64,000 nucleotides of DNA from Escherichia coli (GTDB taxonomy: Bacteria > Pseudomonadota > Gammaproteobacteria > Enterobacterales > Enterobacteriaceae), in the NCBI RefSeq assembly GCF_048403405.1, contig NZ_CP183136.1; one strand, written 5' to 3'. Below are positions 20,449-59,695 of the stretch, one piece after another. Every line of letters starts with the position of its first letter. The first letter of the stretch is position 1. The notes under the pieces were generated by a model. The model saw only the letters and a list, made by a program, of their open reading frames with translations, did no database searches and was not told where the DNA came from. The translations under genes were made by a program, and so were the position numbers.

Positions 20449-23217
20449 ATGAAGTTTATGTGATTGCCGGTGGTGAATGGTTGCGGAATAACCTGAACGC
20501 CATTGCCGCCTTTATGGGAACCAGGACGTGGGATTCCATTGAAAAAATTGCTCTCACCCTGTCTGTTGTTGCGGTGGCCTTTATGTGGGTACAGCGGCAC
20601 AACGTGATGGATTTGCTGGGCTGGGCGGCGGTGTTTGTGCTTATCAGCCTGCTGGTTAATATCCGTACGTCGGTGCAGATTATTGATAACAGTGACCTGG
20701 TCAAAGTCCATCGGGTGGATAATGTGCCGGTCGGACTGGCGATGCCACTTTCACTGACGACCCGTATCGGGCATGCAATGGTGGCCAGTTACGAGATGAT
20801 CTACACGCAACCGGACAGTTTCACCTACAGCAAAACGGGGATGCTGTTTGGCGCAGAACCTGGTATGCAAAAAGCACCGACTTTTTGTCCCGCAATCCGG
20901 AAATCGCCAATCTTTTTCAGGATTATGTGCAGAACTGTGTGATGGGGGATATTTACCTGAACCACAAATACACGCTGGAGGAGCTGATGGCCTCCGCTGA
21001 TCCCTACACGCTGATTTTTTCCCGCCCCAGTCCGCTGCGGGGCGTTTATGACAGCAATAATAATTTCGTGACCTGTAAGGACGCGTCGGTTTCGCTGAAA
21101 GACAAGCTGAATCTGGACACACAGACGTGGCGGCAAAACCTGGCATTATTATGTGCAGCAGATATTTGGCGGTCAGCCCGGATCCGGACCTGTTATTCAG
21201 TGCAACTGGTTGAGTGACAGTTACCGTTATTTCTACGGCTCCAGCCAGTCTGCCAGTCAGATCATGCGCCAGAACGTCACCATGAATGCGCTGAAGGAGG
21301 GTATCACCAGTTATGCAGCCCGTAACGGTGACTACCGCCAGCCTGGTGAATCTGGCCACCACGTCATCGATGGAGAAGCAACGTCTGGCACATGTCTCCA
21401 TTGGTCATGTGGCTGATGCGAAACACTGCCGATGGCGCAGACCATTCTGGTGGGCATTACCATCGGTATTTTCCCGCTCCTGGTACTGGCGGCTGTCTTC
21501 AACAAACTGACGCTGTCTGTTCTGAGAGGCTATGTGTTTGCCCTGATGTGGTTGCAGTCATGGCCAATGTTGTATGCCATTCTGAACAGCGCCATGACAT
21601 TTTATGCGAAGCAGAATGGTGCACCGGTGGTGCTCTCGGAAATTTCACAGATACAGCTGAAATACTCCGATCTGGCTTCCACTGCCGGGTATCTTTCCAT
21701 GATGATACCCGCCATTATCCTGGATGATGGTCAGAGGCCTTGGCGCCGGTTTTTCCAGCGTGTACAGCCATTTCGCTTCCTCTGCTATCAGCCCGACTGC
21801 CAGTGCGGCAGGCAGTGTGGTTGACGGTAATTACTCCTACGGCAACATGCAGACGGAAAACGTGAACGGCTTCAGCTGGAGCACCAACAGCACCACGTCG
21901 TTTGGTCAGATGATGTACCAGACCGGCAGTGGCGCAACTGCCACACAGACCCGTGACGGTAATATGGTGATGGATGCAAGCGGAGCGATGTCCCGTTTAC
22001 CGGTTGGTATCAATGCAACGCGTCAGATTGCAGCGGCACAACAGGAAATGGCCCGGGAGGCGTCGAACAGAGCAGAAAGCGCCCTGCATGGTTTCAGCAG
22101 CAGTATTGCCAGTGCCTGGAACACGCTCAGTCAGTTTGGTTCTAACCGGGGGAGCAGTGATTCTGTCACCGGTGGCGCTGACAGCACCATGAGTGCACAG
22201 GACTCCATGATGGCCAGCCGTATGCGCAGTGCAGTGGAAAGCTATGCGAAGGCGCATAATATCAGTAATGAGCAGGCGACTCAGGAACTGGCATCAACAG
22301 GTTCTAGGTTCTCGTCTGGCGGAATGTATGCAGATGCTCATGCTGAATGGGGGATTAAACCTGAAATTCTTGGTGTTGGTGGTGGGGTTGGTGTCAGAGG
22401 CGGGTTTAAGGGAAGTCTTGGATGCGAACGGATGATGACTCACATTCTGCAAGTAGTGGCAGCAGAGCTACCCATGATGCTCGCCATGATATTGACGCTA
22501 AAGCCAGTACAGGACTTTAAAGAAGCCAGCGATTACTTTACCAGTCGCAAGGTCAGTGAGTCCGGCAGCCATACTGACAATAATGCTGACTCCCGGGTGG
22601 ACCAGTTGTCTGCAGCCCTGAACTCAGCGAAACAGAGTTACGACCAATACACGACGAATATGACCCGCAGCCATGAATATGCGGAAATGGCCTCCCGTAC
22701 TGAAAGCATGAGCGGGCAGATGAGTGAAGACCTGTCGCAACAGTTTGCACAGTATGTGATGAAACGCGCACCGCAGGATGCAGAAGCTATTCTGACAAAT
22801 ACCAGTTCGCCGGAGATTGCAGAACGTCGTCGGGCGATGGCATGGTCTTTTGTGCAGGAACAGGTACAGCCTGGTGTTGATAATGCCTGGCGGGAATCCC
22901 GTGGCGATATTGGTAAAGGAATGGAGAGCGTACCTTCGGGTGGTGGCAGTCAGGATATTATTGCTGACCATCAGGGACATCAGGCCATTATTGAGCAAAG
23001 AACGCAGAACAGTAATATCCGTAATGATGTAAAACATCAGGTTGATAATATGGTCACAGAATATCGTGGCAATATCGGAGATACTCAGAACAGTATCCGT
23101 GGCGAGGAAAATATTGTAAGACGGGCAGTATTCTGAACTGCAAAATCATCATAAAACAGGAGGCATTATCTACAGAATAATAAATATAATGAAGAGCAAG
23201 AAACGTCAGAAGATTAA
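20445..23217 (+). pseudogene. traG: traG (mating-pair stabilisation / entry exclusion), frame-disrupted in several places
   Basis: GTG at 20445 (MNEVYVIAGG...); TraG-like translation is split over ORFs 20283-20942, 20885-21217, 21153-21416, 21432-21824 and 21724-23136; 3' end approximate. Confidence 0.75.
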
Positions 23218-23290
23218 TACCTGACGCCATCAGAAGAGGCTGTGAAAACAGATGGTGGATGATAAGAAGGATACGACTGAAGGGGCCATT

Positions 23291-23699
23291 ATGATCACTC
23301 ACTATGATATAAAAACGGAGACACAGAAACTAAAGGATGTACTCTCTGTAGAGGGAGTTAATATTCCGCCATTATTACAAGTCATAAAGCCAGGGAACTG
23401 TATGTGTTTTTATGGGTTTTATTATGGCCAACTTTTCTGCGTTTAGCTATCAGTTAAAAGTTGATGTCCGGGATGCTGGCTTTGATATATGTGCTAGTGG
23501 CATGATGGGGTTCCTCCTTTTTGTGGCCATTACAAATGGAATGATGTTATACCTTGCGATTCCTGATAGTTTCAGAAATGAGTCGAAAATAATAACTTTT
23601 ATGTATGATAAGAACAAAACTTATATCTTGTCGTTTGTGATTGTTTTTTCTATGGTTTCCTTTGCTGCATACGTATCTTATTTGGGTTTTTGCATCTAA
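23291..23699 (+). pseudogene. traS: traS (entry exclusion), frame-disrupted
   Basis: ATG at 23291 (MITHYDIK...); hydrophobic translation is split between ORFs 23252-23446 and 23412-23699. Confidence 0.55.
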
Positions 23700-23824
23700 T
23701 GATTACTATTCGTAATTATTTCTCTTGGTGTATACCATAGATATAAATCGTTATAATCTCTCTGCAATAGTCTCAGTAATAGGTCTGTTCAAAAAAGAGT
23801 CTGTTAGTTAAAAGGATATTCTGG

Positions 23825-24556
23825 ATGAAAACAAAAAAATTGATGATGGTTGCACTGGTCAGTTCCACTCTGGCCCTTTCAGGGTGTGGTGCGATGAGCA
23901 CAGCAATCAAGAAGCGTAACCTTGAGGTGAAGACTCAGATGAGTGAGACCATCTGGCTTAAACCCGCCAGCGAACGCACGGTATTTCTGCAGATCAAAAA
24001 CACGTCTGATAAAGACATGAGTGGGCTGCAGGGCAAAATTGCTGATGCTGTGAAAGCAAAAGGATATCAGGTGGTGACTTCTCCGGATGCAGCCTACTAC
24101 TGGATTCAGGCGAATGTGCTGAAGGCCGATAAGATGGATCTGCGGGAGTCTCAGGGATGGCTGAACCGTGGTTATGAAGGCGCAGCTGTTGGTGCAGCGT
24201 TAGGTGCCGGTATTACCGGCTATAACTCAAATTCTGCCGGTGCCACACTCGGTGTAGGCCTTGCTGCTGGTCTGGTGGGTATGGCTGCAGATGCGATGGT
24301 GGAAGATGTGAACTATACCATGATCACGGATGTGCAGATTGCAGAGCGTACTAAGGCAACGGTGACAACGGATAATGTTGCCGCCCTGCGTCAGGGCACA
24401 TCAGGTGCGAAAATTCAGACCAGTACTGAAACAGGTAACCAGCATAAATACCAGACCCGTGTGGTCTCAAATGCGAACAAGGTTAACCTGAAATTTGAAG
24501 AGGCGAAGCCTGTTCTCGAAGACCAGCTGGCCAAATCAATCGCAAATATTCTCTGA
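23825..24556 (+). CDS. traT: TraT, surface-exclusion outer-membrane lipoprotein
   Basis: 243-aa ORF with lipobox LALSGCGAM; matches TraT. Confidence 0.95.
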
Positions 24557-24820
24557 TTATCTTCCGGAGGCTGGTCTGACCGGCCTCCTGACTGACGCCT
24601 CGCTTTGCTCGTTGTCCAACCCCGGAAAGAAATAAAATAAATTTTATTTCTCCCCGGCGTTTCCGAAATAAATATGAAAACACTGAGCGGTTGTGCAAAT
24701 TCTTTGTGCGACCGTGAAGTGTTGCCGGCGAAGCCCGGAATTCTGAACGTGATTATTGAATCTTATTGCGATACGATGTGAATAATCAGTCCGACTGACT
24801 TTTTTCTTCGGAATATCATC

Positions 24821-27155
24821 ATGAGTTTTAACGCAAAGGATATGACCCAGGGCGGTCAGATTGCGTCCATGCGTATCCGCATGTTCAGCCAGATCGCCAA
24901 TATCATGCTTTACTGCCTGTTTATTTTTTTCTGGATACTCGTTGGTCTGGTTTTATGGGTAAAAATAAGCTGGCAGACGTTTGTGAACGGCTGTATTTAC
25001 TGGTGGTGTACCACGCTGGAAGGCATGCGGGATTTAATCAAGTCCCAGCCGGTATATGAGATCCAGTATTACGGCAAAACCTTCCGGATGAACGCTGCTC
25101 AGGTACTGCATGATAAATATATGATTTGGTGCGGAGAGCAGCTATGGTCCGCATTCGTTCTGGCCACAGTTGTGGCACTGGTTATTTGCCTGATTACCTT
25201 CTTTGTTGTCTCCTGGATTCTGGGGCGTCAGGGTAAACAACAGAGCGAAAATGAAGTCACAGGTGGTCGTCAGCTGACAGACAATCCGAAAGACGTTGCC
25301 CGGATGCTGAAAAAAGACGGCAAGGACTCCGATATCCGGATTGGCGACCTGCCGATTATCCGGGATTCCGAAATCCAGAACTTCTGTCTGCACGGCACGG
25401 TCGGGGCCGGTAAGTCGGAGGTTATCCGTCGTCTGGCCAACTACGCCCGTCAGCGCGGTGATATGGTGGTGATTTATGACCGTTCAGGGGAATTTGTTAA
25501 AAGTTACTATGATCCCTCCATCGATAAAATCCTGAATCCGCTGGATGCCCGCTGTGCCGCATGGGATTTGTGGAAGGAGTGCCTGACACAGCCGGATTTT
25601 GATAATACCGCAAATACTCTGATCCCGATGGGTACAAAAGAGGACCCGTTCTGGCAGGGTTCAGGACGTACCATTTTTGCGGAAGCGGCGTACCTGATGC
25701 GTAATGACCCCAACCGCAGCTACAGCAAACTGGTGGACACACTGCTTTCCATCAAAATCGAAAAACTGCGTACCTTCCTGCGTAATTCACCGGCGGCCAA
25801 CCTGGTGGAAGAGAAAATCGAGAAAACGGCGATTTCCATCCGTGCTGTGCTGACCAACTACGTGAAAGCCATCCGTTACCTGCAGGGGATTGAGCATAAC
25901 GGTGAGCCCTTCACCATCCGTGACTGGATGCGTGGTGTCCGGGAAGATCAGAAAAACGGCTGGCTGTTTATCTCATCGAACGCCGACACCCATGCCTCCC
26001 TGAAGCCGGTGATCTCCATGTGGCTGTCCATTGCCATTCGTGGTCTGCTGGCAATGGGAGAAAACCGTAAACGTCGTGTGTGGTTTTTCTGTGACGAGTT
26101 ACCCACGTTACACAAACTGCCGGATCTGGTGGAGATCCTGCCGGAAGCCCGTAAGTTCGGTGGCTGTTATGTGTTTGGTATCCAGTCCTATGCCCAGCTG
26201 GAAGATATCTACGGTGAGAAAGCGGCGGCCACGCTGTTTGACGTCATGAACACCCGTGCTTTTTTCCGTTCTCCCGAGCCATAAGATTGCAGAGTTCGCT
26301 GCCGGTGAGATTGGTGAGAAAGAGCACCTGAAAGCCAGCGAGCAGTATTCCTACGGTGCTGATCCGGTACGTGACGGGGTATCGACCGGTAAGGATATGG
26401 AGCGTCAGACGCTGGTCAGTTATTCCGACATTCAGTCTCTGCCGGATCTGACCTGCTATGTCACTCTGCCCGGACCGTATCCGGCAGTAAAACTCTCTCT
26501 GAAATATCAGGCACGACCGAAGGTCGCTCCGGAGTTTATTCCGCGTGACATCAACCCGGAAATGGAGAACCGTCTGAGTGCCGTACTTGCCGCAAGGGAA
26601 GCAGAAGGTCGTCAGATGGCCAGCCTCTTCGAACCGGAGGTTGCCTCCGGAGAAGATGTGACTCAGGCTGAACAGCCACAACAGCCACAACAGCCACAAC
26701 AGCCACAACAGCCACAACAGTCACAACAGCCACAACAGCCACAACAGCCACAACAGCCACAACAGCCACAACAGCCACAACAGCCACAACAGCCACAACA
26801 GCCACAACAGCCACAACAGCCACAACAGCCACAACAGCCACAACAGCCACAACAGCCACAACAGCCACAACAGCCAGTGTCTCCTGCCATCAACGATAAG
26901 AAGTCAGATGCAGGTGTGAGTGTTCCGGCAGGGGGGATCGAGCAGGAGCTGAAAATGAAACCGGAAGAAGAGATGGAACAGCAACTGCCACCCGGGATCA
27001 GTGAATCCGGTGAAGTGGTGGATATGGCCGCTTATGAGGCATGGCAACAGGAAAATCATCCGGACACCCAGCAGCAGATGCAGCGTCGTGAAGAGGTGAA
27101 CATTAATGTGCACCGGGAGCGCGGGGAGGATGTTGAGCCGGGAGATGATTTCTGA
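24821..27155 (+). pseudogene. traD: traD (coupling protein), frameshifted near 26275 as sequenced
   Basis: ORF 24821-26284 has Walker A GTVGAGKS and ends [11 protein letters not shown]; the TraD C-terminal region with the QQP repeat continues in another frame (ORF 26256-27155). Confidence 0.85.
26673..26870 (+). repeat. Tandem 9-bp repeat (CAGCCACAA, about 22 units) encoding the TraD QQP tract
   Basis: Repeat units read directly; one variant unit CAGTCACAA. Confidence 0.9.
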
Positions 27156-30100
27156 TGTTGAGTTTCAGCGTTGGTTAAATCGGCAGGCAGTGCCGGAAAC
27201 TATTACACCGACAAGGATAATTACTATGTGCTGGGCAGCATGGGAGAACGCTGGGCTGGTCAGGGGGGCTGAACAGCTTGGGACTGCAGGGCAGCGTCGA
27301 TAAGGATGTTTTTACCCGTCTTCTGGAGGGCAGGCTGCCGGACGGAGCGGATTTAAGCCGCATGCAGGATGGCAGTAATAAGCATCGTCCCGGCTACGAC
27401 CTGACCTTCTCCGCCCCCAAAAGTGTCTCCATGATGGCCATGCTCGGGGGCGATAAACGCCTGATTGATGCACATAACCAGGCCGTGGATTTTGCTGTCC
27501 GTCAGGTGGAGGCGCTGGCTTCCACACGGGTGATGACGGACGGACAGTCAGAAACGGTGCTGACCGGTAATCTGGTGATGGCACTGTTTAACCATGACAC
27601 CAGTCGCGATCAGGACCCACAGTTACACACGCATGTAGTGGTGGCTAATGTCACGCAGCATAACGGCGAGTGGAAGACACTGAGCAGTGACAAAGTGGGG
27701 AAAACCGGATTTATCCGAGAACGTGCTACGCGAACCGGATTGCGTTCGGGAAGATCTATCAGAGTGAGTTACTGTCAGCGCAGGTTGAGGCGCTGGGTTA
27801 TGAAACCGAAGTGGTCGGTAAGCACGGTATGTGGGAGATGCCGGGCGTACCGGTGGAGGCCTTTTCCAGTCGTTCACAGGCTATCAGGGAGGCCGTCGGT
27901 GAAGACGCCTCGCTGAAATCCCGGGATGTGGCGGCACTGGATACGCGAAAATCCAAACAGCACGTCGATCCGGAAATCAGAATGGCTGAATGGATGCAGA
28001 CGCTGAAGGAAACCGGGTTCGACATCCGGGCATATCGTGACGCGGCGGATCAGCGTGCGGAGACCCGCACGCAGGCGCCCGGGGCTGTTTCACAGGAGGG
28101 GCCGGATGTGCAGCAGGCGGTGACACAGGCCATTGCCGGATTAAGTGAACGAAAAGTGCAGTTTACGTACACGGACGTGCTGGCCAGAACGGTCGGTATA
28201 CTGCCGCCGGAAAATGGTGTGATTGAACGGGCACGCGCCGGTATCGATGAGGCCATCAGTCGTGAGCAGCTTATCCCCCTCGACCGTGAGAAGGGGCTGT
28301 TCACATCAGGAATTCATGTGCTCGATGAGCTGTCCGTCCGGGCACTCAGTCGTGACATCATGAAACAGAACCGGGTGACCGTACATCCGGAGAAAAGTGT
28401 CCCCCGGACGGCTGGTTACAGCGATGCGGTCAGTGTTCTGGCACAGGACCGTCCGTCGCTGGCCATTGTGTCCGGGCAGGGCGGTGCAGCCGGGCAGCGT
28501 GAGCGGGTGGCTGAACTGGTCATGATGGCCCGGGAGCAGGGGCGGGAGGTGCAGATTATCGCTGCTGACCGTCGCTCGCAGATGAACCTGAAGCAGGATG
28601 AACGGCTGTCCGGTGAGCTGATAACCGGACGTCGTCAGCTGCAGGAGGGCATGGTCTTCACGCCGGGCAGTACTGTTATCGTCGACCAGGGCGAAAAACT
28701 CTCCCTGAAAGAGACGTTAACCCTGCTGGACGGTGCCGCACGTCATAACGTACAGGTCCTGATAACCGACAGCGGGCAGCGAACCGGTACAGGCAGTGCG
28801 CTGATGGCCATGAAGGATGCCGGGGTGAACACGTATCGCTGGCAGGGCGGAGAACAGCGACCGGCAACCATCATCAGTGAACCGGACCGGAATGTCCGCT
28901 ATGACCGGCTGGCCGGAGATTTTGCGGCCAGCGTGAAAGCCGGAGAAGAGAGCGTGGCACAGGTCAGCGGGGTACGGGAACAGGCCATACTGACACAGGC
29001 CATTCGCAGTGAGCTGAAAACACAGGGCGTGCTCGGACACCCGGAGGTGACCATGACCGCCCTGTCACCGGTCTGGCTGGACAGCCGGAGCCGTTATCTG
29101 CGGGATATGTACCGACCGGGGATGGTGATGGAGCAGTGGAACCCGGAGACACGCAGTCATGACCGCTATGTTATCGACCGGGTGACGGCGCAGAGTCACA
29201 GCCTGACCCTGCGGGATGCGCAGGGCGAAACGCAGGTGGTGCGTATTTCCTCCCTGGACAGCAGCTGGTCGCTGTTCCGGCCGGAAAAAATGCCGGTGGC
29301 AGACGGCGAGCGACTGAGGGTGACAGGGAAAATTCCCGGACTCCGCGTCTCCGGCGGTGACCGCCTGCAGGTGGCATCCGTCAGTGAAGATGCGATGACG
29401 GTTGTTGTGCCGGGGCGGGCTGAACCGGCCACCCTGCCTGTGGCTGATTCACCGTTCACGGCACTGAAGCTGGAGAACGGCTGGGTGGAAACGCCCGGGC
29501 ATTCCGTCAGTGACAGTGCGACGGTGTTTGCCTCCGTCACACAGATGGCAATGGACAACGCCACCCTGAACGGTCTGGCCCGCAGCGGTCGTGATGTCCG
29601 GCTGTATTCCTCACTGGATGAAACCCGTACTGCGGAAAAACTTGCCCGCCATCCCTCCTTTACGGTGGTTTCTGAGCAGATAAAGGCGCGGGCCGGTGAG
29701 ACATCGCTGGAAACCGCTATCAGTCTGCAGAAAACCGGGCTGCACACGCCGGCACAGCAGGCCATTCATCTGGCCCTTCCTGTGCTGGAAAGTAAAAACC
29801 TGGCCTTCAGCATGGTGGACCTGCTGACAGAGGCGAAGTCGTTTGCTGCAGAAGGAACCGGTTTTACTGAACTGGGAGGGGAAATCAATGCGCAGATAAA
29901 ACGCGGTGACTTACTGTATGTGGATGTGGCAAAAGGCTATGGCACAGGCCTGCTGGTTTCTCGTGCGTCGTATGAGGCAGAAAAAAGTATTCTTCGCCAT
30001 ATTCTCGAAGGTAAGGAGGCGGTCACGCCGCTGATGGAGAGAGTACCCGGCGAACTCATGGAGACGTTAACGTCGGGACAGCGTGCCGCCACCCGTATGA

Positions 30101-39433: not shown

Positions 39434-39697
39434 ATGAATAGCACCACACATTACGAAAACGCCAATTTCCTGCGCGAGCTGGCCGAAAGCCTGCCTCGTA
39501 TTTTTCCAGAAGGCAGTACAGACAAGTCTGCACTATTGCAACGCCTCGCTAATGAAGAACTGGCACGGGCGGAATACGACGAACAGATCCGAGCGAAAGT
39601 TGCCGCTGCCCGCGCCGATAAGCGGCCGGGAATGAGTTCCGCGCAACTGCGCCAGCAACTACAGGGACGTTATCAGGAACTGCGCAATGAGTTATGA
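39434..39697 (+). CDS. Type II antitoxin (ParD/RelB-like)
   Basis: 87-aa ORF overlapping by 11 nt the downstream toxin ORF. Confidence 0.65.
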   Translation: MNSTTHYENANFLRELAESLPRIFPEGSTDKSALLQRLANEELARAEYDEQIRAKVAAARADKRPGMSSAQLRQQLQGRYQELRNEL

Positions 39698-39986
39698 AAT
39701 AGAATGGCGACCAGGTGCGATTGAGGATATAACGGCGTTGTTTGAATATCTGGTCGAGAATGCATCTCTTTGGGATGCAAGGAACGTGACAGAGCGTCTG
39801 ATCACTGCAACCGATCGCCTGGCTGATTACCCCAGGCTGTATGAAACGGATGAACGCTATGGTGAAGGGGTTCGCCGTATTAGCTTACTTGGACAGCATG
39901 TACTTTATGAAGTGAATGATGAGGCCAGTCGTGTCAATATCCTGGCGGTTGTAGGCCAGCGTCAGAATCCCCGATTCATTCTTTGA
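39687..39986 (+). CDS. Type II toxin of the RelE/ParE superfamily
   Basis: 99-aa ORF with RelE/ParE-like character, overlapping the upstream antitoxin. Confidence 0.7.
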   Translation: MSYEIEWRPGAIEDITALFEYLVENASLWDARNVTERLITATDRLADYPRLYETDERYGEGVRRISLLGQHVLYEVNDEASRVNILAVVGQRQNPRFIL

Positions 39987-40021
39987 GTGTCCGGCTTGGA
40001 ACTCCATCTTCAGAGAATCGA

Positions 40022-40687
40022 TCAACGTTCTTTAGCTCCTTCCACTAACAGCCGACCTATCTCAAACACCGCAGCTGACCGTCCCGACTTCACCGCTTCG
40101 GCTTTCTGTCCCTCAACAAACCAGTTATTACCGTCCGTTCGGACCAACTCAAACATCCATGACATATCGTAAACGTGTTCCGGGATCAGCGACCCTTCTC
40201 CGGCCAGAATACCCGCCGTTATGGAGTGGTTGCCCCCGTGCACAAAGCCAATACGCCAGGGCAACCACAGGTCAACATAGTGGTTGTTTTTATCTTGCTT
40301 CCACGGCTTCCCCTTATGGGTTCCAATGCGTGAAACGTTATCGATATAGCGTGGTAGGCTCCAAGGCCACGGCAGCACTATGTCGCTTGCCAGCGACAAC
40401 GGATAATCAGCGCCGTTCATCTCACACTCTTTCATCTTTTCGTAAGATTGTATTTGGGTAAGTCCCTTAAAGAAGAACTCCTGCGGGGTCATATCCGGGC
40501 GGGCATCTGTTCCCTCCTCAGCTACCGCCAGCAAGAAATCACTCTGTACTGGCCGCACGATAGCGCGAATGAGATCTGGTAGCGCCTTAACGGGTAGTTT
40601 CTCTGCCACAGAAAGCAGATGATTGAAGCGTTTTTTTTCATTGGCTATAGTTGCTTTATCTTTCTTGTTTCGGTTCCAGAACATCAC
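40022..40687 (-). CDS. Hypothetical protein, 221 aa, no recognised domain
   Basis: Clean ORF convergent with the TA pair, same strand as the mcb operon, separated from mcbG by about 570 bp without ORFs. Confidence 0.5.
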   Translation of the reverse strand: MMFWNRNKKDKATIANEKKRFNHLLSVAEKLPVKALPDLIRAIVRPVQSDFLLAVAEEGTDARPDMTPQEFFFKGLTQIQSYEKMKECEMNGADYPLSLASDIVLPWPWSLPRYIDNVSRIGTHKGKPWKQDKNNHYVDLWLPWRIGFVHGGNHSITAGILAGEGSLIPEHVYDMSWMFELVRTDGNNWFVEGQKAEAVKSGRSAAVFEIGRLLVEGAKER

Positions 40688-41256
40688 TGTCTGTAGCCCT
40701 CCTTATCGTGATCAGGATGATGGTTTTCATTCTAATGGTGTAGTAGTTTCACGTCACGCGCACGTGCATATTCTTCGAAAGCTTCGGCGTTAGCCGGTCA
40801 ACCAGGGGGTTGAGGCCCAACCGTACGAGATCGTACGCTAAGTTCATTTTTTGAGCAGAAGAGGTGAGTAAAGAAAACGAGGGTTTTGTTTACTCTTCCC
40901 GTCAATGCCAGTAGCCATGCGGTTTCAGGGACTTTCAGTGTTAATAAACTCGGTAATCAAATCAACGTAAACCTGCCTAACAACGCCACGACTTTATTGA
41001 CTTAAAATCATATAGTTAGCTTCTTAGCGTACGTTTCCGCTCCATTGGGCTTCAAACCCCACACCCAATGACATGAGAAAAGCTGGATCTGATTCTCAAA
41101 ATGCTGGGATACCCATCGAGATGGAGAACTCAGTCAATGTTCCATTCTTTCTGAAATATGTGTGGGGACACTGATCTGTCGGGAGCCGGATGCGGTAGTT
41201 CCGCAGGTCCGGTTCTGAGGAGGGGCCCGTCCGGGCAACCGGCGGGTCTACTCACC

Positions 41257-41820
41257 TCATCCCCCTACAACCACTCCCATTCGTTTAAGTATTTTTAAAC
41301 CTGCTTCCTGTGGTATCTTTATAGATAAGATCCTGTTTATCTCAGGATTTATATCGAGACCTTCTGTCATTGAAAAATCACAGTGAGACAAATCAGAATG
41401 TCTGAACTCTGTATTATTAAACTCCGAACCAGTAAAATCAGATTTACGAAGGTCTGTTTCCTCAAATAAACAATCACGGAAGCGACTGGATAAAAAAATA
41501 GATTTCTGTAACCGTAAACTAATAAAATCAACAAATCTCAAATCACAATTTACAAGAGAAAAAGTACAGGGAAACATAATGTCTGCTGCATTTACTCCTT
41601 GTAATAAACAATCTTTGAATTCACAGTCAATAAGTTTAAAAAAATTAAGTTTTAAATTCTTTATTGAGCAGTTTACGAAGCGACATTTTTCGAACTCACA
41701 ATCGCGAAAGTTAAAGTTGTCAAGCTGTATTCGTTCAAATATACAATTGTAATAATTTACACCTGATAATTCACTTTCACTGAGGTGTCGTTTTGTGATT
41801 CTTTTTTCTATTATATCCAT
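41257..41820 (-). CDS. mcbG: McbG, pentapeptide-repeat microcin B17 immunity protein
   Basis: 187-aa ORF made of pentapeptide-like repeats; last gene of the operon. Confidence 0.9.
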   Translation of the reverse strand: MDIIEKRITKRHLSESELSGVNYYNCIFERIQLDNFNFRDCEFEKCRFVNCSIKNLKLNFFKLIDCEFKDCLLQGVNAADIMFPCTFSLVNCDLRFVDFISLRLQKSIFLSSRFRDCLFEETDLRKSDFTGSEFNNTEFRHSDLSHCDFSMTEGLDINPEINRILSIKIPQEAGLKILKRMGVVVGG

Positions 41821-41823
41821 GTG

Positions 41824-42555
41824 TCAGTCTCCTGTTCCCATAACTTCTTTAATAAATGCCTTTTCTGGAGTTGTTTCATTATTGGATTGAATAAAATCAC
41901 TCATATCAGAATAACGATTTATACTATTTTTTGAAAGCATATAGAAGGGGATTTTATCTCTTGTTAATTCATCAAAAATATGAGTTGAGAAAAATACAGT
42001 TTTCCCGTCAGCGGTGATCTTATTTATCAGTTCCCATAACATCATTCTGTACTGAATATCAATGCCTACAGTTGGTTCATCCAGTAAAAATAAACGGGCA
42101 TTTTTGCAAAGCGTTAGCATCAAAGATATGATAAGCCAACGCTTCTCTCCATAACTTACCGTGTAAGTCCTTTTACGTCTTATTTTATCATAGCGAATGA
42201 AAAAATTATCATTCCATTTATGATTAAGCTCTGTCCATGCCTGTTTTTTAGTTAACTTATTGAAGCAGCAAATCAAATCAAGAACCTCCTCATTCCTTAG
42301 TGTACCTGAAAGATTTATGACTTGAGGTAGACTTACTAATTCTCCATCAGAGAAATTTCGCTTGAGGGTCCCTTCATAATTACTGACTCCGCCCCTGATA
42401 AGGTTAAAAAGAGTGGTCTTCCCGGCTCCATTTTCTCCAAGCAGACCTATCAACTCTCCCTGCTCAATCTTAAGCGACAGATTATTGAAAACAGGGGGTA
42501 AATTTACTTTATATGAAAAGCTCAGAGAGTTGATTTCTAAAAGAGGTATGGTCAT
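41824..42555 (-). CDS. mcbF: McbF, ABC transporter ATP-binding protein (microcin B17 export/immunity)
   Basis: Walker A GENGAGKTT; overlaps mcbE. Confidence 0.9.
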   Translation of the reverse strand: MTIPLLEINSLSFSYKVNLPPVFNNLSLKIEQGELIGLLGENGAGKTTLFNLIRGGVSNYEGTLKRNFSDGELVSLPQVINLSGTLRNEEVLDLICCFNKLTKKQAWTELNHKWNDNFFIRYDKIRRKRTYTVSYGEKRWLIISLMLTLCKNARLFLLDEPTVGIDIQYRMMLWELINKITADGKTVFFSTHIFDELTRDKIPFYMLSKNSINRYSDMSDFIQSNNETTPEKAFIKEVMGTGD

Positions 42556-43277
42556 TGAGAACTCCAGACTGGCTCAGTTTTGAAGGTTAGTGCTGAAATA
42601 ATACTTATGATTAACATTATACTATAGAAAAATATCGTCATCAGAGACAACTCCTGATCTGACTGGAGTATTGTAGAATAGATGGCGATAGGATTAACCT
42701 GATTTATCCAGTAAACGATCCCCTCATTATATTTTAATGATACAATTCCTGATACCATACAGACAGTTATTAATACAGAATAGATAGTGCTGGCTGTTTG
42801 GAATGTGACTCTGAACGATGCCATGAAAGTGAGTGAAACCATCATAAATGCATTTATGTATATCGATTTTAAAATAATCATTACTATTTGATAATCTGGA
42901 CTTGCCTGGAATCCTGTTAGTACGACTAAAATGAAAAAAAACACATACAAAATAGACATGATAAGTGAGGCTATTAATTGAGAACGAATAAATAATAGTC
43001 GACCATCCATATTATGCACGAAGGTAGCAATAAAACCACTTTCTCTTCTTCCGACCAGATACAGACAGTAATTAAACAGAACAACAGAAAAAGAAATGTA
43101 GCCTACAAACCATGATATTTGTTTTCCGAGCCATGCTGTATCACCATAATGAAGTTCAATTTCATTGAAATGAAGGAAAAAGAACAACACTGTAGGTGAC
43201 ATAATTGTCCATATTAAGCTGAAAGGGGTTCTGATTTGTTCCATCAGAAAAATTATCGCCATTTTTAATGTAACCAT
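42552..43277 (-). CDS. mcbE: McbE, ABC transporter permease (microcin B17 export/immunity)
   Basis: 241-aa polytopic membrane protein directly upstream of mcbF. Confidence 0.9.
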   Translation of the reverse strand: MVTLKMAIIFLMEQIRTPFSLIWTIMSPTVLFFFLHFNEIELHYGDTAWLGKQISWFVGYISFSVVLFNYCLYLVGRRESGFIATFVHNMDGRLLFIRSQLIASLIMSILYVFFFILVVLTGFQASPDYQIVMIILKSIYINAFMMVSLTFMASFRVTFQTASTIYSVLITVCMVSGIVSLKYNEGIVYWINQVNPIAIYSTILQSDQELSLMTIFFYSIMLIISIISALTFKTEPVWSSQ

Positions 43278-43286
43278 TTGTTATCC

Positions 43287-44477
43287 TTATGGGAATGGTA
43301 CCATCTTTGATTCTCTGACTTTAATACCGTCCCCGGTATGGTAAATTTTATTATTAATGTTTATTGCACCTGAGTTATTCATATGAAGGAAAAAATCAGG
43401 GCTTACTATTTTTGTGTACCAGACAAGGCTGTTACTTACTCTTTCCCTGGCATAGTAAACAAAAATATTATCAGAAATTTGTTGAAGATAGTTTAATAAA
43501 TTTGTGTCTGACGTAATATTTTCCTCAAGCGTTAACTTGACATCATCAGACAGTAGTACCGTATTTTCACACAAATCCGTAAACGACTCGTACTTGTTGC
43601 ATGACATAAAGTGACGCTGGTAACTATCAATGATGTCATCATCAGTATAACCGCCAATAAGAAAGTTGTGCAGGCATATATACGATTGCCACAATTCCAC
43701 TACGGATTTACAAAGTGCTTTTTTCAGACTATTAGCATAGGATAATCCGGTACTGTATTTTATTCGACTGATTTTGTTTTTTGTGCCATACAGGGTTAGT
43801 ACTGCGTGTCCAGGAGCTCCGGGCAGGGTGATATCGAAAATCCTGATATCTCCTTCTGACCTGAGAGCCAGTAAAATCTCATCTATATGATTTATGCCTG
43901 TTACTATTTCACTGGATATTTCAGTATTGGCTTTTCCCTGTAACCAGTAAAGAAGGAGGGACTGTCTCTCCATAAATTCACACAAGGAACCTTCTATGGC
44001 ATCGTTCAAACTACCATGAAAGCTACATCCGCATGTATCTCTGTCAGGATAAAATTTCAGATCATCTGCAGCGGTTATATTGTCGAGTGCAATTATGACT
44101 GCAGGTATTTCTTGTTGTTCAAGGCTAAACAGATTAAAGGCTCTGACCGTTTTAAATTTATGGGTTATGATTTCATCGCGGGTCAGTGATGAGATCTGAA
44201 AAAATGCTTCGGTAAAAGCCTTTGCAGCAGATGGAGGCATCATCTCATATAATGTTTTCTGACCACCGGTGACTATCTCATTAAAAAAATGACGGCGTTC
44301 AAAATATTCACCTATTGCCCCCTGAATTGACTTCAGAGTTTCACCGGCCGCGCTGGCTGGTGTAATACGCTCATAGTCCCATATCTGAGAAAACGTTGGC
44401 ATATTTCTGTTCAGTTTTGGACTCATGGCCATTGTGGCCGGCCATGCGGACATAAGGTTACTGTAGACATTTATCAT
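43287..44477 (-). CDS. mcbD: McbD, YcaO-type cyclodehydratase of microcin B17 synthetase
   Basis: 396-aa ORF in operon position; matches McbD. Confidence 0.9.
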   Translation of the reverse strand: MINVYSNLMSAWPATMAMSPKLNRNMPTFSQIWDYERITPASAAGETLKSIQGAIGEYFERRHFFNEIVTGGQKTLYEMMPPSAAKAFTEAFFQISSLTRDEIITHKFKTVRAFNLFSLEQQEIPAVIIALDNITAADDLKFYPDRDTCGCSFHGSLNDAIEGSLCEFMERQSLLLYWLQGKANTEISSEIVTGINHIDEILLALRSEGDIRIFDITLPGAPGHAVLTLYGTKNKISRIKYSTGLSYANSLKKALCKSVVELWQSYICLHNFLIGGYTDDDIIDSYQRHFMSCNKYESFTDLCENTVLLSDDVKLTLEENITSDTNLLNYLQQISDNIFVYYARERVSNSLVWYTKIVSPDFFLHMNNSGAININNKIYHTGDGIKVRESKMVPFP

Positions 44478-45276
44478 CGTTTACATCTCCAAAAAACTGA
44501 ACGATCAGTGGCGCTACAGTCCTCTGATCCAGATTCATTGTTTTTGCTACGTATGAATCGGTATATCCCGCCCATACCCGGTTTTTCAGTCCTATTTGAT
44601 CTGCAACCAATACTGCGTTCTGATACATCGAACCTGTTTCCATTAAGGCCATCCGGTATCCTCTGTAGCGATATTTGAACAAAGCTTTTTCAAAAATAAT
44701 GCAATAGACGAGAGCAAAATGGGGTTTACCAAGACGTTCCGAATCCCCACCGGACAGGCTTCGGTAGAGTGACTGAGTATTACATGTAGCAACAGGTTCC
44801 AGTGCCTGACTTAGCGGCAGGTAGTGATAAACATTAGTTCCTGCCTGCCAGTTTTCTGTATTTTCAGATAATCTGCATAAAAAAACTTCAATCGGGTACA
44901 ATGCCCCCCCAGAAGGATAAGGTCTTCTTACAGAGCCAGGATCAGGTGAGCTGAATGCATTGACTAATAACTTTTCAATAGTACGAATGGAAAGTTTATT
45001 TTTGTCGCAAAAGTTTATTCCTGATGGGAGCCTTTCACGACTAAAATTATGTGATGAGGATATGTTTATTACGGAGCTGAAACCTGGCCTGAAGAGAACT
45101 TCTTTATTTTCAAATTTCTCCAGATGGGCAAGAGGTACCGCGGACACGAAAGTTCGTTCAGCAAATTCGGGGAGGGAAGCAAAGTTACCTCTGACATGAA
45201 AATCTTTAACAATGGCCAGAACTTCAGGATCTGTGTAATGCGTTACTTCCACTAAAGAGAGTTCGTGTTTTGACAT
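44458..45276 (-). CDS. mcbC: McbC, FMN-dependent dehydrogenase of microcin B17 synthetase
   Basis: 272-aa ORF in operon position; matches McbC. Confidence 0.9.
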   Translation of the reverse strand: MSKHELSLVEVTHYTDPEVLAIVKDFHVRGNFASLPEFAERTFVSAVPLAHLEKFENKEVLFRPGFSSVINISSSHNFSRERLPSGINFCDKNKLSIRTIEKLLVNAFSSPDPGSVRRPYPSGGALYPIEVFLCRLSENTENWQAGTNVYHYLPLSQALEPVATCNTQSLYRSLSGGDSERLGKPHFALVYCIIFEKALFKYRYRGYRMALMETGSMYQNAVLVADQIGLKNRVWAGYTDSYVAKTMNLDQRTVAPLIVQFFGDVNDDKCLQ

Positions 45277-46065
45277 GTTATCTCTCCAGACAGCTGCAAG
45301 CCTGCCAGTGAATTACCGGCTCTTTACATAAAATACAGGTGATTAAATCAGCGCTAACAGATGACATAAAGTTATCGACATGACTTTTAACCAGTGAAGT
45401 ACCTGTCAACTCCTGAAGTCGCCGTTTTATTAAATGATAGCTGAATCCTCTTTCTGATTCGCCTAAAGCCAATGCTGGTAGTGTCATTTGGTATTTTTTC
45501 AGTAACTGAAGTAAGTTTGCCCAGGACATTTCGTTACGTCTGAAGCTTTTTTCTTCCCTGCTCAGCCATCTATCTATATGACAAAAATGGCAGGGAGTAC
45601 CAAGATCAGGTGAATATACTCCATCTATCCTGAATGACTCCTTTAGGTAGTAGCTTTGGATGAAGGCAACACCAGGGTTACTTTCAAATTTTGAATAGAT
45701 TCTTTTTACAATGTCTGAATGATAGTTTTCGAGATGTAACCAGATTAGTGTTGAATCGCTCACATTAATATTATTATCTTTTATATCAATGATATGAGAA
45801 ACAAAAACACCATCAGATTTCCATTGTTCCCGGGCATTACTGAAAAGATGTGGAACATCGCTTATTATGACTGAGTTTACCCAGAGAGGTGATGTTTTCG
45901 TTTTATTTATCACGCCTGTGGTAATAAGAAACTCTTTGCCCTTGTCTTTATCAATAAGCGATTCGTCCAGTAGTTTATCAAGGAGGTATTCAGAAATAAT
46001 ACCCTGTTTGGATCGTAGGCTTTCGAGTACTTTTTTCATTCCCTCATGTGTAATGTCTACTGAAG

Positions 46066-46074
46066 AAATGTAGG
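46066..46074. repeat. Target-site duplication AAATGTAGG, left copy
   Basis: Identical 9 bp directly flank both IS ends. Confidence 0.9.
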
Positions 46075-47131
46075 GGCTTTGTTGAATAAATCGAACTTTT
46101 GCTGAGTTGAAGGATCAGATCACGCATCTTCCCGACAACGCAGACCGTTCCGTGGCAAAGCAAAAGTTCAAAATAACCAACTGGCCCACCTACAATAAAG
46201 CCCTCATCAACCGTGGCTCCATAACTTTCTGGCTGGATGATGAAGCTATTCAGGCCTGGTATGAGTCAGCAACACCTTCTTCACGAGGCAGACCTCAGCG
46301 CTATTCTGACCTTGCCATCACGACTGTGCTGGTCATTAAACGCGTATTCAGGCTGACCCTGCGCGCTGCGCAGGGCTTTATTGATTCCATTTTTTCTCTG
46401 ATGAACGTTCCGCTACGCTGCCCGGATTACAGCTGTGTCAGCAGGCGGGCAAAGTCGGTTAATATCAGTTTCAAAACGCCCACCCGGGGTGAAATCGCAC
46501 ACCTGGTAATTGATTCCACCGGGCTGAAGGTCTTCGGTGAAGGCGAGTGGAAAGTCAAAAAGCATGGTCAGGAACGCCGCCGTATCTGGCGTAAGCTGCA
46601 TCTGGCAGTTGACAGCAACACACATGAAATCATCTGTGCAGACCTGTCGCTGAACAATGTGACGGACTCAGAAGCCTTCCCGGGTCTTATCCGGCAGACT
46701 CACAGAAAAATCAGGGCAGCATCGGCAGACGGCGCTTACGACACCCGGCTCTGTCACGATGAACTGCGGCGTAAGAAAATCAGCGCGCTTATCCCACCCC
46801 GAAAAGGCGCGGGTTACTGGCCCGGTGAATATGCAGACCGTAACCGTGCTGTTGCGAATCAGCGAATGACCGGGAGTAATGCGCGGTGGAAATGGACAAC
46901 AGATTACAACCGTCGCTCGATAGCGGAAACGGCGATGTACCGGGTAAAACAGCTGTTCGGGGGTTCACTGACGCTGCGTGACTACGATGGTCAGGTTGCG
47001 GAGGCTATGGCCCTGGTACGAGCGCTGAACAAAATGACGAAAGCAGGTATGCCTGAAAGCGTGCGTATTGCCTGAAAACACAACCCGCTACGGGGGAGAC
47101 TTACCCGAAATCTGATTTATTCAACAAAGCC
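46075..47131 (+). mobile_element. IS903-type insertion sequence (IS5 family), 1057 bp
   Basis: 18-bp terminal inverted repeats GGCTTTGTTGAATAAATC at both ends, single transposase ORF, 9-bp direct duplication. Confidence 0.9.
46152..47075 (+). CDS. IS903 transposase (DDE)
   Basis: GTG at 46152 within ORF 46107-47075 gives 307 aa; fills the IS. Confidence 0.85.
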   Translation: MAKQKFKITNWPTYNKALINRGSITFWLDDEAIQAWYESATPSSRGRPQRYSDLAITTVLVIKRVFRLTLRAAQGFIDSIFSLMNVPLRCPDYSCVSRRAKSVNISFKTPTRGEIAHLVIDSTGLKVFGEGEWKVKKHGQERRRIWRKLHLAVDSNTHEIICADLSLNNVTDSEAFPGLIRQTHRKIRAASADGAYDTRLCHDELRRKKISALIPPRKGAGYWPGEYADRNRAVANQRMTGSNARWKWTTDYNRRSIAETAMYRVKQLFGGSLTLRDYDGQVAEAMALVRALNKMTKAGMPESVRIA

Positions 47132-47140
47132 AAATGTAGG
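47132..47140. repeat. Target-site duplication AAATGTAGG, right copy
   Basis: Identical 9 bp directly flank both IS ends. Confidence 0.9.
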
Positions 47141-47257
47141 TAATAAGCAGGGTCTTTGTATTTCTGGAAATTATCTCAAACGGCAGAATATTGATCATAT
47201 CTTTTCCTTTTTTAATATCAGGGAGCACCATGCTCCCTGAACGGTTAATTCAACGTA

Positions 47258-47467
47258 TCAGATATGTGAACCACTTCCGCCGCTGCCACCGTTTCCACCA
47301 CTACAACCGTTGCTGCAACCACCACAACCGCCACCTTGACCACCGCAGCTACCGCCGCCGCCGCCGCCGCCACCACCACCAATGCCAACACCTAATGGAG
47401 ACTGGCGTGATAATTTAAGAGCATCAACGGACAAAACTACACCAAATTCACTCGCTTTTAATTCCAT
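47258..47467 (-). CDS. mcbA: McbA, microcin B17 precursor peptide
   Basis: 69-aa ORF with leader then Gly/Ser/Cys-rich core (GGGGGGGGGGSCGGQGGGCGGCSNGCSGGNGGSGGSGSHI). Confidence 0.95.
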   Translation of the reverse strand: MELKASEFGVVLSVDALKLSRQSPLGVGIGGGGGGGGGGSCGGQGGGCGGCSNGCSGGNGGSGGSGSHI

Positions 47468-47620
47468 AAGGACTCCTTTTTTAAGGGAAATTAATGCTTA
47501 TGACATCTGAATAGTATGTTGGCCAACACTAGTTACTTGCCGTAATTAACTATATTTTGCAATGATAATTTGAACTAAATTTGTACGCTTGTTAAATATT
47601 TAATAATAATATCAGTTGGT
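47468..47620 (-). promoter_or_regulatory. Probable mcb operon promoter region
   Basis: AT-rich sequence immediately upstream of mcbA; individual promoter elements not resolved. Confidence 0.35.
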
Positions 47621-47723
47621 TATGTTTATGCTGTTATTGTTTTTTTACAAAAATTAATATTGTGTTTACATTTTGCTTTCAGTTGCTGTCAGGATGTCAC
47701 ACTACCCCTTTAAGCCCCCACTG

Positions 47724-47815
47724 GTCTGGCAGGGCCGGGGGTGGGTAAGGTGAAACCTGTCAATCAGTACCGGCTTACGCCGGTATCATATGCAACAACT
47801 GAGTGCCGCCTTCCA
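47724..47815. repeat. Second copy of the element at 39084-39217, shorter by an internal gap
   Basis: Shares GGTAAGGTGAAA..CAGTACCGGCTTACGCCGG..GCCGCCTTCCAT in the same orientation. Confidence 0.6.
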
Positions 47816-47996
47816 TATCATATCATTTGCCCGTTTCCCGCCGTGCAGATCCGGTTTCCGGCTGAAGTGGATCCAGACCTGATTTGTTGCTGAGTATCGG
47901 TAAAAGAGCGGCTTATAATCTATTCTGAAACATGGCAAGTGAATCTGGGCTGTATAATTCCGGCAAGTGTCATCTGTATTTAAAGGTCGTGTGAGT

Positions 47997-48449
47997 ATGA
48001 AATTTATGGAATGTGCTGTCCGGGATGTGATTTATGGGACCAATGTCCGTATTGTCAAACCGGTCAACATTTATGAATGTGAACTCAGGGACAATGTGTT
48101 TGTCGGCCCCTTCGTTGAGATACAGAAAGGCTGTGTCATTGGTAGTGGAAGCCGGATACAGTCGCACACGTTTATTTGTGAGAACGTAACACTGGGGGAG
48201 AACTGCTTCATTGGTCATAACGTGACGTTCGCCAACGATCTGTTTCGTTCAGGAGCACCAGATCCGTCACCGGATAACTGGATCAGCATTACCCTGGGGG
48301 ATTCGGTTACTGTTGGCAGTGGAGCCATTATTCTGTCTCCGTATATATGCAGCGGAGCTGTTATTGGTGCGGGGGCAGTTGTAGTAAAACCGATTGAGAA
48401 CAAAGGCATTTATGCAGGAAACCCGGCAAGACTGATCAGAATATTATGA
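47997..48449 (+). CDS. Hexapeptide-repeat (left-handed beta-helix) acyltransferase
   Basis: Tandem imperfect hexapeptide repeats (IGSGSRIQSHTFICENVTLGENCFIGHNVTF...); ATG at 47997 within ORF 47967-48449. Confidence 0.7.
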   Translation: MKFMECAVRDVIYGTNVRIVKPVNIYECELRDNVFVGPFVEIQKGCVIGSGSRIQSHTFICENVTLGENCFIGHNVTFANDLFRSGAPDPSPDNWISITLGDSVTVGSGAIILSPYICSGAVIGAGAVVVKPIENKGIYAGNPARLIRIL

Positions 48450-48454
48450 AAAAG

Positions 48455-48480
48455 AAAAGGGCCGTTACTGGCCCTTTTTA
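48455..48480. terminator. Hairpin terminator after the acyltransferase gene
   Basis: AAGGGCC-GTTACT-GGCCCTT followed by a T-run. Confidence 0.6.
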
Positions 48481-48851
48481 TCAGAGGTAGGTCTGTGAAT
48501 ACGGCAGGTGTACAGAAATCGACTGCCGGGGATCGATTTCCAGGGCCGCCCGGTATTCTGCGTCAGTGATATCACCTTTTTTCAGTAAATAACCGAGAGC
48601 ATCGTTTCCCAGCCCTGACAGTATGCGTATTCTGGCGATCCGGACTGGCAAATAACCCATCAAAAACGTTATTGCCAGACATTGCGAACTCACCAATTTT
48701 GATTATTGGAGCCACTTTTTCATAAGTTCCGTGAAATTATTTCATAATAACGACCCTGTTTATTTTATGTAATGACTGGCAATAAAATAACTTGATTAAG
48801 TTCCCTTTATCCAGCCTGATAGTGGATAAAGGAAACTCAATCATAATTTAA

Positions 48852-49205
48852 TTAGTTTATTAACTTCATCGCATTCTTTTTTGTCTCCTCATCACTTTTT
48901 TGCTCCGATTGTGAAGAGGACTGAATGATTGTTGAAGAATTTAAATCGGCCATCTCTTTTGGAAATAGCGATCTCAATATATTCACGATATCTGAAAATG
49001 TGGTTTCTTTCGTCAGCAGTTCACATAAAAGGAAAGGGGCCCTGGGATCTTGTCTGTATAAGGCCAGACCTGCCGTCAGTGCAGCCCGGTTAAGGCGGCT
49101 GCGTTCCCCTTGCGGGATACTGTCCAGTGTATCACAAACAATTTTATCTGTTTGATTTACATCTGGATTTAGCTTAAAGGCAATGGTTCTGCGCTTGTCC
49201 ATCAT
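48852..49205 (-). CDS. parR: ParR (StbB), partition adaptor/repressor
   Basis: 117-aa ORF matching R1-type ParR; directly downstream of parM. Confidence 0.9.
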   Translation of the reverse strand: MMDKRRTIAFKLNPDVNQTDKIVCDTLDSIPQGERSRLNRAALTAGLALYRQDPRAPFLLCELLTKETTFSDIVNILRSLFPKEMADLNSSTIIQSSSQSEQKSDEETKKNAMKLIN

Positions 49206-51651: not shown

Positions 51652-51970
51652 GATGTCGCCGTGCTCCTCTTTTTACTGCGCCGGCTGACGCGGCGCGGCA
51701 TAAACGCTGCCTGTGGTCAGTGTCCCGCGTCCGGCGGGCACGGGGCGGGCGCTTTTACCGCTCCCGGCTGGCGTCGGTGACAGTGTACGCCAGCCCGTCG
51801 CCCTTTTCTGATGAACGCCCTTCAAGCCGCTTTCGCGGCATAACCTTGCCGTCAAAAAGACGACGGCTGCGGTATTCCACGGTCGGCCTGACCCGTTACC
51901 GGACGCGGTGAACAGCCCACAGGCAGCGGGGAACGGGCACCACAGGGGTGCCCTCCCGGTGCCCTCTGTA
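51652..51970 (+). repeat. Large repeat, family A copy 2; candidate single-strand promoter upstream of the methyltransferase operon
   Basis: Near-identical to 50348-50660. Confidence 0.7.
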
Positions 51971-59039: not shown

Positions 59040-59695
59040 ACTGATGATGTTGTTGTTCCTGCTACTGCTACTGCTACTGCTACTGCTACTGCTACTGCTA
59101 CTGCTACTGCTACTGTTCTTCTTTTTTCTGCTGCTCTGATTACTGTCTGTTTTGTTGTTCTCCTGCTTATGCCTTTTCCGGGCGTCCCCCTGGCGGGGCG
59201 GGCTGTCGTGAACGGAGCCAGCGGAGCTGTCTCCGCCCTGGCGGGCTTCCATCCCTGACGCAAAAACCCGGGTTTGCAGCGACCGGAACGGTCGCGCCAC
59301 CCTTGTCGCGCCGTGGCCTGCGCTCCCGGCATCCCGGCAAAAGACGCCGGGATGTAAGGAGCAACGCCGTTTCGCAAACCGCGCTTCACGTCGTTGCGGC
59401 GGGTCCCTGCCCGTTGTTCTGTCCGGTGCCATTCACCTGTTTAAGCCCCTGTCGCCGGGGGCATAGACAGCCACAACCTGCCGCACTGACTGTCCAGGGT
59501 AAATGAACAGCCCACAAAATTTTTTACCCAAAACCCGGTAAAAAATTTTGCGTTCTGCCCAGGACAGGTGCGTCAGGCCGTGGCAGTGATGCCCCATGCG
59601 GCGAAGGTTCTCAAACAGGTGATGGTGAATACCGGAGGGAACAAAAGGCAGGTCCCCGCAAAACGTCAAAACCGCGGCTCCCGAAACTCAACAGA
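59040..59695 (+). repeat. Large repeat, family B copy 2, upstream of ssb; Frpo-type single-strand promoter candidate
   Basis: Near-identical to 55790-56395 apart from the hexanucleotide tract and a short variable segment. Confidence 0.7.
59059..59115 (+). repeat. Hexanucleotide microsatellite (CTGCTA), about 9.5 units
   Basis: Read directly; absent from the paralogous repeat copy, which has an irregular pyrimidine tract instead. Confidence 0.9.

Follow-up and report, generated by a model that had tools for sequence, protein, structure and literature searches.

The closest described systems to the locus reported here are the microcin B17 (MccB17) operon of the prototype plasmid pMccB17, for which ON989342 is the definitive sequence (Ajeigbe et al. 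2024, PMC10912980), and the McbB4C2D2 complex, in which the small N-terminal winged-helix domain of McbB is the leader-recognition element and residues 9–14 of the McbA leader join the β-sheet of this domain as its fourth strand (Ghilarov 2019, PMC6395948). The stretch analyzed here comprises 64,000 nucleotides of an Escherichia coli plasmid (contig NZ_CP183136.1, assembly GCF_048403405.1; hereafter the window) and carries seven mcb genes in the canonical order, from mcbA to mcbG, on the minus strand between positions 41257 and 47467. Gene order and orientation are those of ON989342, as are all seven product lengths once an inserted element is removed; the two loci also share their flanks, with a DUF6710 gene on one side and an acetyltransferase gene and stbAB/parM on the other, as well as Ser117 in McbB. 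Whereas the prototype is free of any insertion sequence (IS), mcbB is here split by a copy of IS903B, and McbF carries a G70D substitution. From the laboratory insertion mutants of pMccB17 that San Millan and colleagues (1985) and Yorgey and colleagues (1993) are said to have studied, an insertion in mcbB would reportedly be expected to give a non-producing, immune plasmid; unlike those mutants, the locus described here acquired its IS903B naturally, in a plasmid of clinical lineage. Judged from its sequence, the locus very probably arose by simple transposition of IS903B into mcbB, which would have yielded a plasmid that no longer produces MccB17 and is probably still immune to it.

IS903B is an IS5-family element whose DDE transposase cuts the target with a 9-bp stagger. 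The element and its boundaries in the window are the following:

46075–47131, plus strand: IS903B, 1057 bp, the sole copy within the window, with its transposase transcribed opposite to the mcb operon.
46075–46092 and 47114–47131: left (GGCTTTGTTGAATAAATC) and right terminal inverted repeats of IS903B.
46066–46074: left copy of the target-site duplication, AAATGTAGG, 9 bp.
47132–47140: right copy of the target-site duplication, AAATGTAGG, 9 bp, a perfect match to the left copy.
46107–47075, plus strand: open reading frame (ORF) of the IS903B transposase, 322 residues from a TTG start; a 307-residue form would begin at the GTG at 46152.

The left repeat and the reverse complement of the right repeat agree at 18 of 18 bases, and the similarity between the ends ceases past base 18. 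The coordinates thus bear out the first-pass annotation, which had described a 1057-bp IS903-type element with perfect 18-bp inverted repeats and a perfect 9-bp duplication. The transposase scores 356 bits on the IS5 family transposase model NF033579 of NCBIfam (cutoff 140) and is WP_000654802.1 in the Prokaryotic Genome Annotation Pipeline (PGAP). Five other E. coli plasmids hold PGAP-named IS903B copies with 100% identity to the element over its entire 1057 bp, and many further copies are 99.6–99.9% identical. Its length, 18-bp repeats, 9-bp duplication and single transposase ORF of the IS5-family DDE type are those of the IS903 group, and of IS903B itself; what sets this copy apart is where it inserted. 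The empty site is preserved in pKP121-3, which has one AAATGTAGG copy and is collinear with the excised region without gaps. Chance is of no concern, given this complete identity to other IS903B copies and the roughly 100 public E. coli plasmids in which the operon is uninterrupted.

The break in mcbB lies past codon 33, after the first base of codon 34, exactly where it had been placed initially, and the gene is left in two pieces:

47121–47231, minus strand: 5′ fragment of mcbB, with 33 native codons (47231–47133) followed by W-L-C-stop from the right end of the IS.
45278–46074, minus strand: 3′ fragment of mcbB, residues 32–295 and the stop codon (tblastn match 46072–45281, 100% identity).

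Residues 32 and 33 occur in both fragments because the target was duplicated. In-silico removal of the IS and one copy of the 9-mer restores an 888-bp ORF encoding a McbB of 295 residues, in agreement with the in-frame ORF of that length reported earlier. This restored protein aligns with the McbB of PDB entry 6GOS over residues 1–295, differs from it only at the known variant positions S117C and D198E, and scores 288 bits on TIGR04424. Re-sequencing of pMccB17 in 2024 established Ser117 as the correct residue (PMC10912980). The first canonical start in the 3′ fragment is the ATG at 46039, which corresponds to Met43, the methionine of MKKVLES, and opens an ORF for a 253-residue product (45278–46039); a GAGG motif lies just 2 nt ahead of this ATG. 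No second mcbB was found within the window by tblastn. In terms of the intact McbB, McbC and McbD by which an mcb cluster is recognized, the window has McbC and McbD intact and McbB split.

The position of the break within the protein suggests what has been lost. A search for the McbB family returned 36 proteins, 20 of which were aligned. Full-length family members measure 283–296 residues and start at the position of Met12, as do all 19 aligned homologues. Residues 12–44 are among the most conserved of McbB: P17, E19 and L28 are invariant across the 20 sequences, and M12, F18, K26, L29, I30, Y32, S34–D37, H40 and G42–K44 are nearly so. An AlphaFold model of McbB built upon this alignment, with predicted local distance difference test (pLDDT) values of 76–94 over residues 10–80, places strands at residues 12–15, 19–23, 26–30 and 35–38 and helices from residue 41 onward; it superseded a single-sequence prediction that was unusable (pLDDT 36). 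According to this model, IS903B would cut McbB inside the leader-binding β-sheet, and a product restarted at Met43 would retain helices alone, because all strands of the domain fall at residues 12–38. The locus can no longer give full-length McbB: the 5′ part stops after 33 residues plus W-L-C, and the 3′ part has no canonical start ahead of Met43. Since the Met43 product would be devoid of the winged-helix strands that clamp the McbA leader in the McbB4C2D2 synthetase, McbA would not be converted to its thiazole/oxazole peptide and no active MccB17 would be made. We therefore strongly infer, from sequence and model together, that McbA maturation is lost. The first-pass annotation had reached the same expectation, which the severed leader domain, its conservation, the AlphaFold model and the published complex (PMC6395948) uphold; the truncated product from MKKVLES, whose support of synthetase function it had named as a possible refutation, would lack every strand of the leader-binding domain.

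The insertion was next placed among its relatives by a junction search that covered PLSDB and 5426 complete E. coli genomes. The exact IS–mcbB junction is absent from PLSDB and present in one of the 5426 genomes, on pCREC774-5 (NZ_CP183140.1) of strain 774, a urine isolate from Taiwan. In the 14.2 kb around mcb, the window and pCREC774-5 differ by one homopolymer T, and between 28 and 59.7 kb there are three differences only; in tra blocks at 0–3.9 kb and 19–27.9 kb, by contrast, they are separated by hundreds of clustered substitutions. That the window might merely be pCREC774-5 read across its origin was considered and rejected. The same insertion allele on two mosaic backbones excludes an assembly artefact for practical purposes and indicates that the allele was inherited, and the mosaic tra blocks imply that these F-like backbones recombined after the IS had inserted. 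With the IS removed, window positions 39600–49200 align to pKP121-3 without gaps and with four substitutions in 8535 bp, of which only the T at 42347 is private to the lineage among the loci compared. From 39000 to 59035 (about 19 kb, IS excluded), the window is identical to its closest intact relative, NZ_JBQJRS010000007.1 from Taiwan, except for the length of a T-run at 47639. Because the flank matches an intact relative so completely, a recent insertion is supported. The initial annotation had also called the insertion recent; that view stands on the identical flank and not on the perfection of the 9-bp duplication from which it had been argued, which is a poor clock for insertion age. Taken together, these comparisons suggest that one IS903B copy inserted, by a single simple transposition, into mcbB of an IncFII F-like MccB17 plasmid belonging to a lineage that circulates in Taiwan.

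The remaining genes of the operon, and a structural feature at the start of mcbB, are as follows:

47258–47467, minus strand: mcbA, MccB17 precursor of the McbA type (leader and Gly/Ser/Cys-rich core), 69 residues, intact (NF041037, 132 bits, cutoff 70; WP_001535752.1).
44458–45276, minus strand: mcbC, SagB-type flavin mononucleotide (FMN) dehydrogenase, 272 residues, intact (TIGR03605, 95.7 bits, cutoff 78.4).
43287–44477, minus strand: mcbD, YcaO cyclodehydratase, 396 residues, intact, free of gaps and substitutions when aligned to plasmids with an intact operon.
42552–43277, minus strand: mcbE, membrane component of the export/immunity pump, 241 residues, intact (PGAP 'microcin B17 immunity protein McbE', WP_000258040.1).
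41824–42555, minus strand: mcbF, ATP-binding cassette (ABC) ATPase of the export/immunity pump, 243 residues, full length, G70D allele (T at 42347).
41257–41820, minus strand: mcbG, pentapeptide-repeat immunity protein, 187 residues, intact (WP_000351267.1 in identical DNA; similarity to the pentapeptide repeats of the Qnr family).
47220–47240, minus strand: native mcbA–mcbB hairpin, a perfect 10-bp stem with the mcbB ATG in its 3-nt loop (−17.6 kcal/mol, z-score −2.9).

The lengths of McbA and of McbC through McbG equal those in ON989342 (PMC10912980), so the comparison with the reference operon that had been proposed as a check agrees, by product length, with mcbA and mcbC–G being intact. 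As expected of an mcb cluster, mcbE, mcbF and mcbG follow downstream in the same orientation. The hairpin is native to all mcb operons and is left intact by the IS; it probably restrains the translation or transcription of mcbB relative to mcbA. The G70D change in McbF (codon 70, window position 42347) is non-conservative and falls in the stretch that separates the Walker A motif from the Q-loop region. Four of 111 E. coli records have it, against 0 of 111 from PLSDB; three of these four are plasmids of 70.6 kb, likewise from Taiwan, that belong to strain 2020N21-110 and its derivatives and whose operon is uninterrupted. An origin of G70D through relaxed selection following the loss of production was rejected, because this intact Taiwanese sister plasmid, the relative NZ_JBQJRS010000007.1, carries it too; the substitution is consequently older than the insertion.

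The interpretation of a non-producing yet immune plasmid also depends on expression of the immunity genes. The transposase gene is oriented opposite to the operon, and the IS could therefore drive the truncated mcbB and mcbCDEFG only through an outward promoter at its left end. Several observations weigh against the interpretation at this point. A relaxed scan (−35/−10 pairs of at least 8/12) found no outward or hybrid promoter reading from the left end of the IS into mcbB, the two pairs it returned sitting entirely in mcbB sequence, and a consensus promoter scan of 41100–47800 remained at chance level, with 21 found and 18 expected. No intrinsic terminator was predicted by a scan inside the IS on the operon strand, and polarity would then hinge on Rho acting on an RNA of about 1.1 kb in which the mcbB frame has no canonical start. 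The McbF substitution is a rare change in the immunity pump itself, and the split gene might be complemented in trans if the host genome held another, intact mcbB. As for the supporting genetics, Genilloud and colleagues reportedly described in 1989 a main promoter upstream of mcbA and a weaker one inside mcbC, and the Tn5 insertions in mcbA–D that San Millan and colleagues are said to have obtained in 1985 were reportedly non-producing yet immune. Internal mcb promoters are not described in the reviews consulted, and a literature search gave no relevant description of an outward promoter in IS903. The first-pass proposal that immunity and export genes may be expressed from internal or IS-borne promoters thus finds no sequence support for its IS-borne half, and retained immunity would have to depend on read-through or on internal promoters. 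As for the proteins required, full immunity to MccB17 needs mcbE, mcbF and mcbG, with partial immunity otherwise (PMC6795089), and natural E. coli whose mcb genes are limited to mcbG and an mcbF orthologue, with transposase genes on either side, resist MccB17 (PMC10926693). Transcripts from the main promoter would probably be lowered downstream of mcbB by Rho-type polarity, and the intact mcbE, mcbF and mcbG would most likely still be transcribed, through read-through or the reported mcbC promoter, conferring at least partial immunity. On the sequence evidence, retention of immunity is likely, though it is held with less assurance than the insertion and the loss of production.

The same features can be read as a fully polar null, in which the IS stops all downstream expression, mcbEFG included, and leaves neither production nor protection. 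The reported position of the main promoter upstream of mcbA, the premature stop in mcbB followed by about 1.1 kb without a canonical start in the mcbB frame, and the lack of a convincing downstream promoter in the sequence scans all favor this account. It is nevertheless unlikely, since the IS has no predicted intrinsic terminator on the operon strand, mcbG/mcbF remnants alone correlate with MccB17 resistance (PMC10926693), and the immunity genes are free of lesions on two diverged backbones. The mcbC promoter and the immune Tn5 production mutants reported in 1985–1989 would also speak against it. Continued production, either because a truncated McbB (from Met43, or from a 269-residue ORF with an ATT start) works or because an mcbB elsewhere complements it, is very unlikely. 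The frame is open from the end of the IS into the remainder of mcbB, a GAGG motif precedes Met43, and the C-terminal domain 2 of McbB is intact together with its four zinc-binding cysteines. However, conservation within domain 1 is highest in the missing residues 12–42, which also contain all of the domain's β-strands, the leader pairs with the very sheet that is lost (PMC6395948), and the segment is kept in all full-length family members, the only 253-residue form found coming from a 1555-bp contig. Moreover, the GAGG motif is only 2 nt from the ATG, and the window has no second mcbB. That repeat misassembly or a sequencing artefact placed the IS in mcbB is exceedingly improbable: many E. coli genomes do hold several copies of IS903B, but the 9-bp duplication is perfect, the ends of the element are exact, and the identical junction occurs in an independent record with an otherwise differing backbone. 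A simple transposition that silenced production and probably spared immunity therefore remains our preferred interpretation.

Comparison with other mcb loci places this insertion within a wider pattern. At least 80% of the mcb operon is present in about 100 of the 5426 complete E. coli genomes, and 3 of the 40 best PLSDB matches to the operon contain an extra interruption. Decayed loci in public data include pB16EC0942-7, with IS1 in mcbB; pB1172_77638, with an IS3-family element in mcbD; pCUPSTF6_1_02, with IS2 and a deletion from mcbB to mid-mcbD; pFHI_NMBU_10_01, with a deletion joining truncated mcbB to truncated mcbE; and pLH10-b-1-A, with mcbG and an mcbF fragment only, between IS1414 and IS91. 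In these five loci, synthetase genes were lost and mcbF and mcbG were kept (in pLH10-b-1-A, mcbF only as the fragment). They differ from the present locus in the IS involved and its position, whereas here the damage is confined to mcbB and dates from a very recent event. Decay in which the synthetase is lost and the immunity genes persist thus recurs, and the plasmid studied here exemplifies it cleanly and recently without being of a new kind. A literature search found no description of IS-disrupted mcb operons. IS903B and the mcb operon are both known, the mechanism is textbook, and the junction was already in RefSeq.

Damaged forms of McbB itself are also found in public data. A deletion fusion of mcbB to mcbC encodes 328 residues, and a Salmonella McbB carries 34 unrelated N-terminal residues fused on near residue 62. 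A 253-residue McbB beginning at the equivalent of Met43 occurs on a 1555-bp contig only.

The practical consequence concerns annotation, since screens that score plasmids as positive for MccB17 by the presence of mcb genes would miscount this one as a producer. The near-identical intact sister plasmid makes the pair usable as a natural isogenic system for studying the cost of production and the promoter-distal expression of immunity. More broadly, bacteriocin plasmids recurrently lose production and keep immunity, and the locus adds one clean, recent example. It is conceivable, though doubtful, that the insertion, instead of being neutral decay, belongs to a set of events that arose independently and were selected in clinical IncFII plasmids, with the costly McbBCD synthetase switched off and mcbEFG kept. 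If so, such 'cheater' plasmids would shield their hosts from neighboring MccB17 producers and might confer slight fluoroquinolone tolerance. In favor of this idea, every lesion in the handful of disrupted loci lies in mcbB, mcbC or mcbD, none starts in mcbF or mcbG, and the present allele persists on two backbones. However, the sample of disrupted loci is too small to tell selection from the lethality of immunity loss in a producer. The locus shows no new mechanism; it is of practical use for the correction of annotation and as half of a near-isogenic pair.

Such a correction would apply to pCREC774-5. In its record, at 45413–46222 of NZ_CP183140.1 (equivalent to window positions 46040–46087), PGAP annotates a 269-residue 'McbB family protein' with an ATT start inside the left inverted repeat of IS903B and gives mcbB no pseudogene flag. 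This 269-residue McbB is best seen as an annotation artefact. The same record has a T-run of 4 where the window has 5 (51670–51674), and PGAP calls the overlapping gene 'frameshifted'. The run of 5 in the window preserves the frame, like the 312-bp gene of the sister plasmid, and the RefSeq record of pCREC774-5 probably has a homopolymer error at the equivalent position.

Further differences were observed in the plasmid backbone. The tra region of the window is mosaic, with 90–98% identity to the two closest mcb plasmids at 0–3900 (around traJ/traY) and at 19000–27900 (traG/traS/traT/traD); outside these blocks, the window is nearly identical to both. At window position 59772/59773, the sister plasmid from Taiwan contains a further segment of about 2.7 kb in the ssb region that includes a group II intron reverse transcriptase (ltrA) and is missing from the window, and the two differ by 12 bp in the copy number of a CTGCTA-type short tandem repeat at 59059–59070. 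An Rfam scan of the window matched backbone RNAs only, with no match from 41 to 48 kb. A 256-bp unit (40805–41060) that is also found in pKP121-3 lies between the DUF6710 gene and mcbG and is bounded by 38-nt inverted repeats (GGGGGTTGAGG...ACGCTAAG) with 76% complementarity. These repeats have GGGG at the start and TAAG at the end, and a 5-bp flanking duplication was not seen around the unit. Such ends resemble the terminal repeats of Tn3-family transposons, and the unit may be a miniature Tn3-derived remnant bordering the mcb region.

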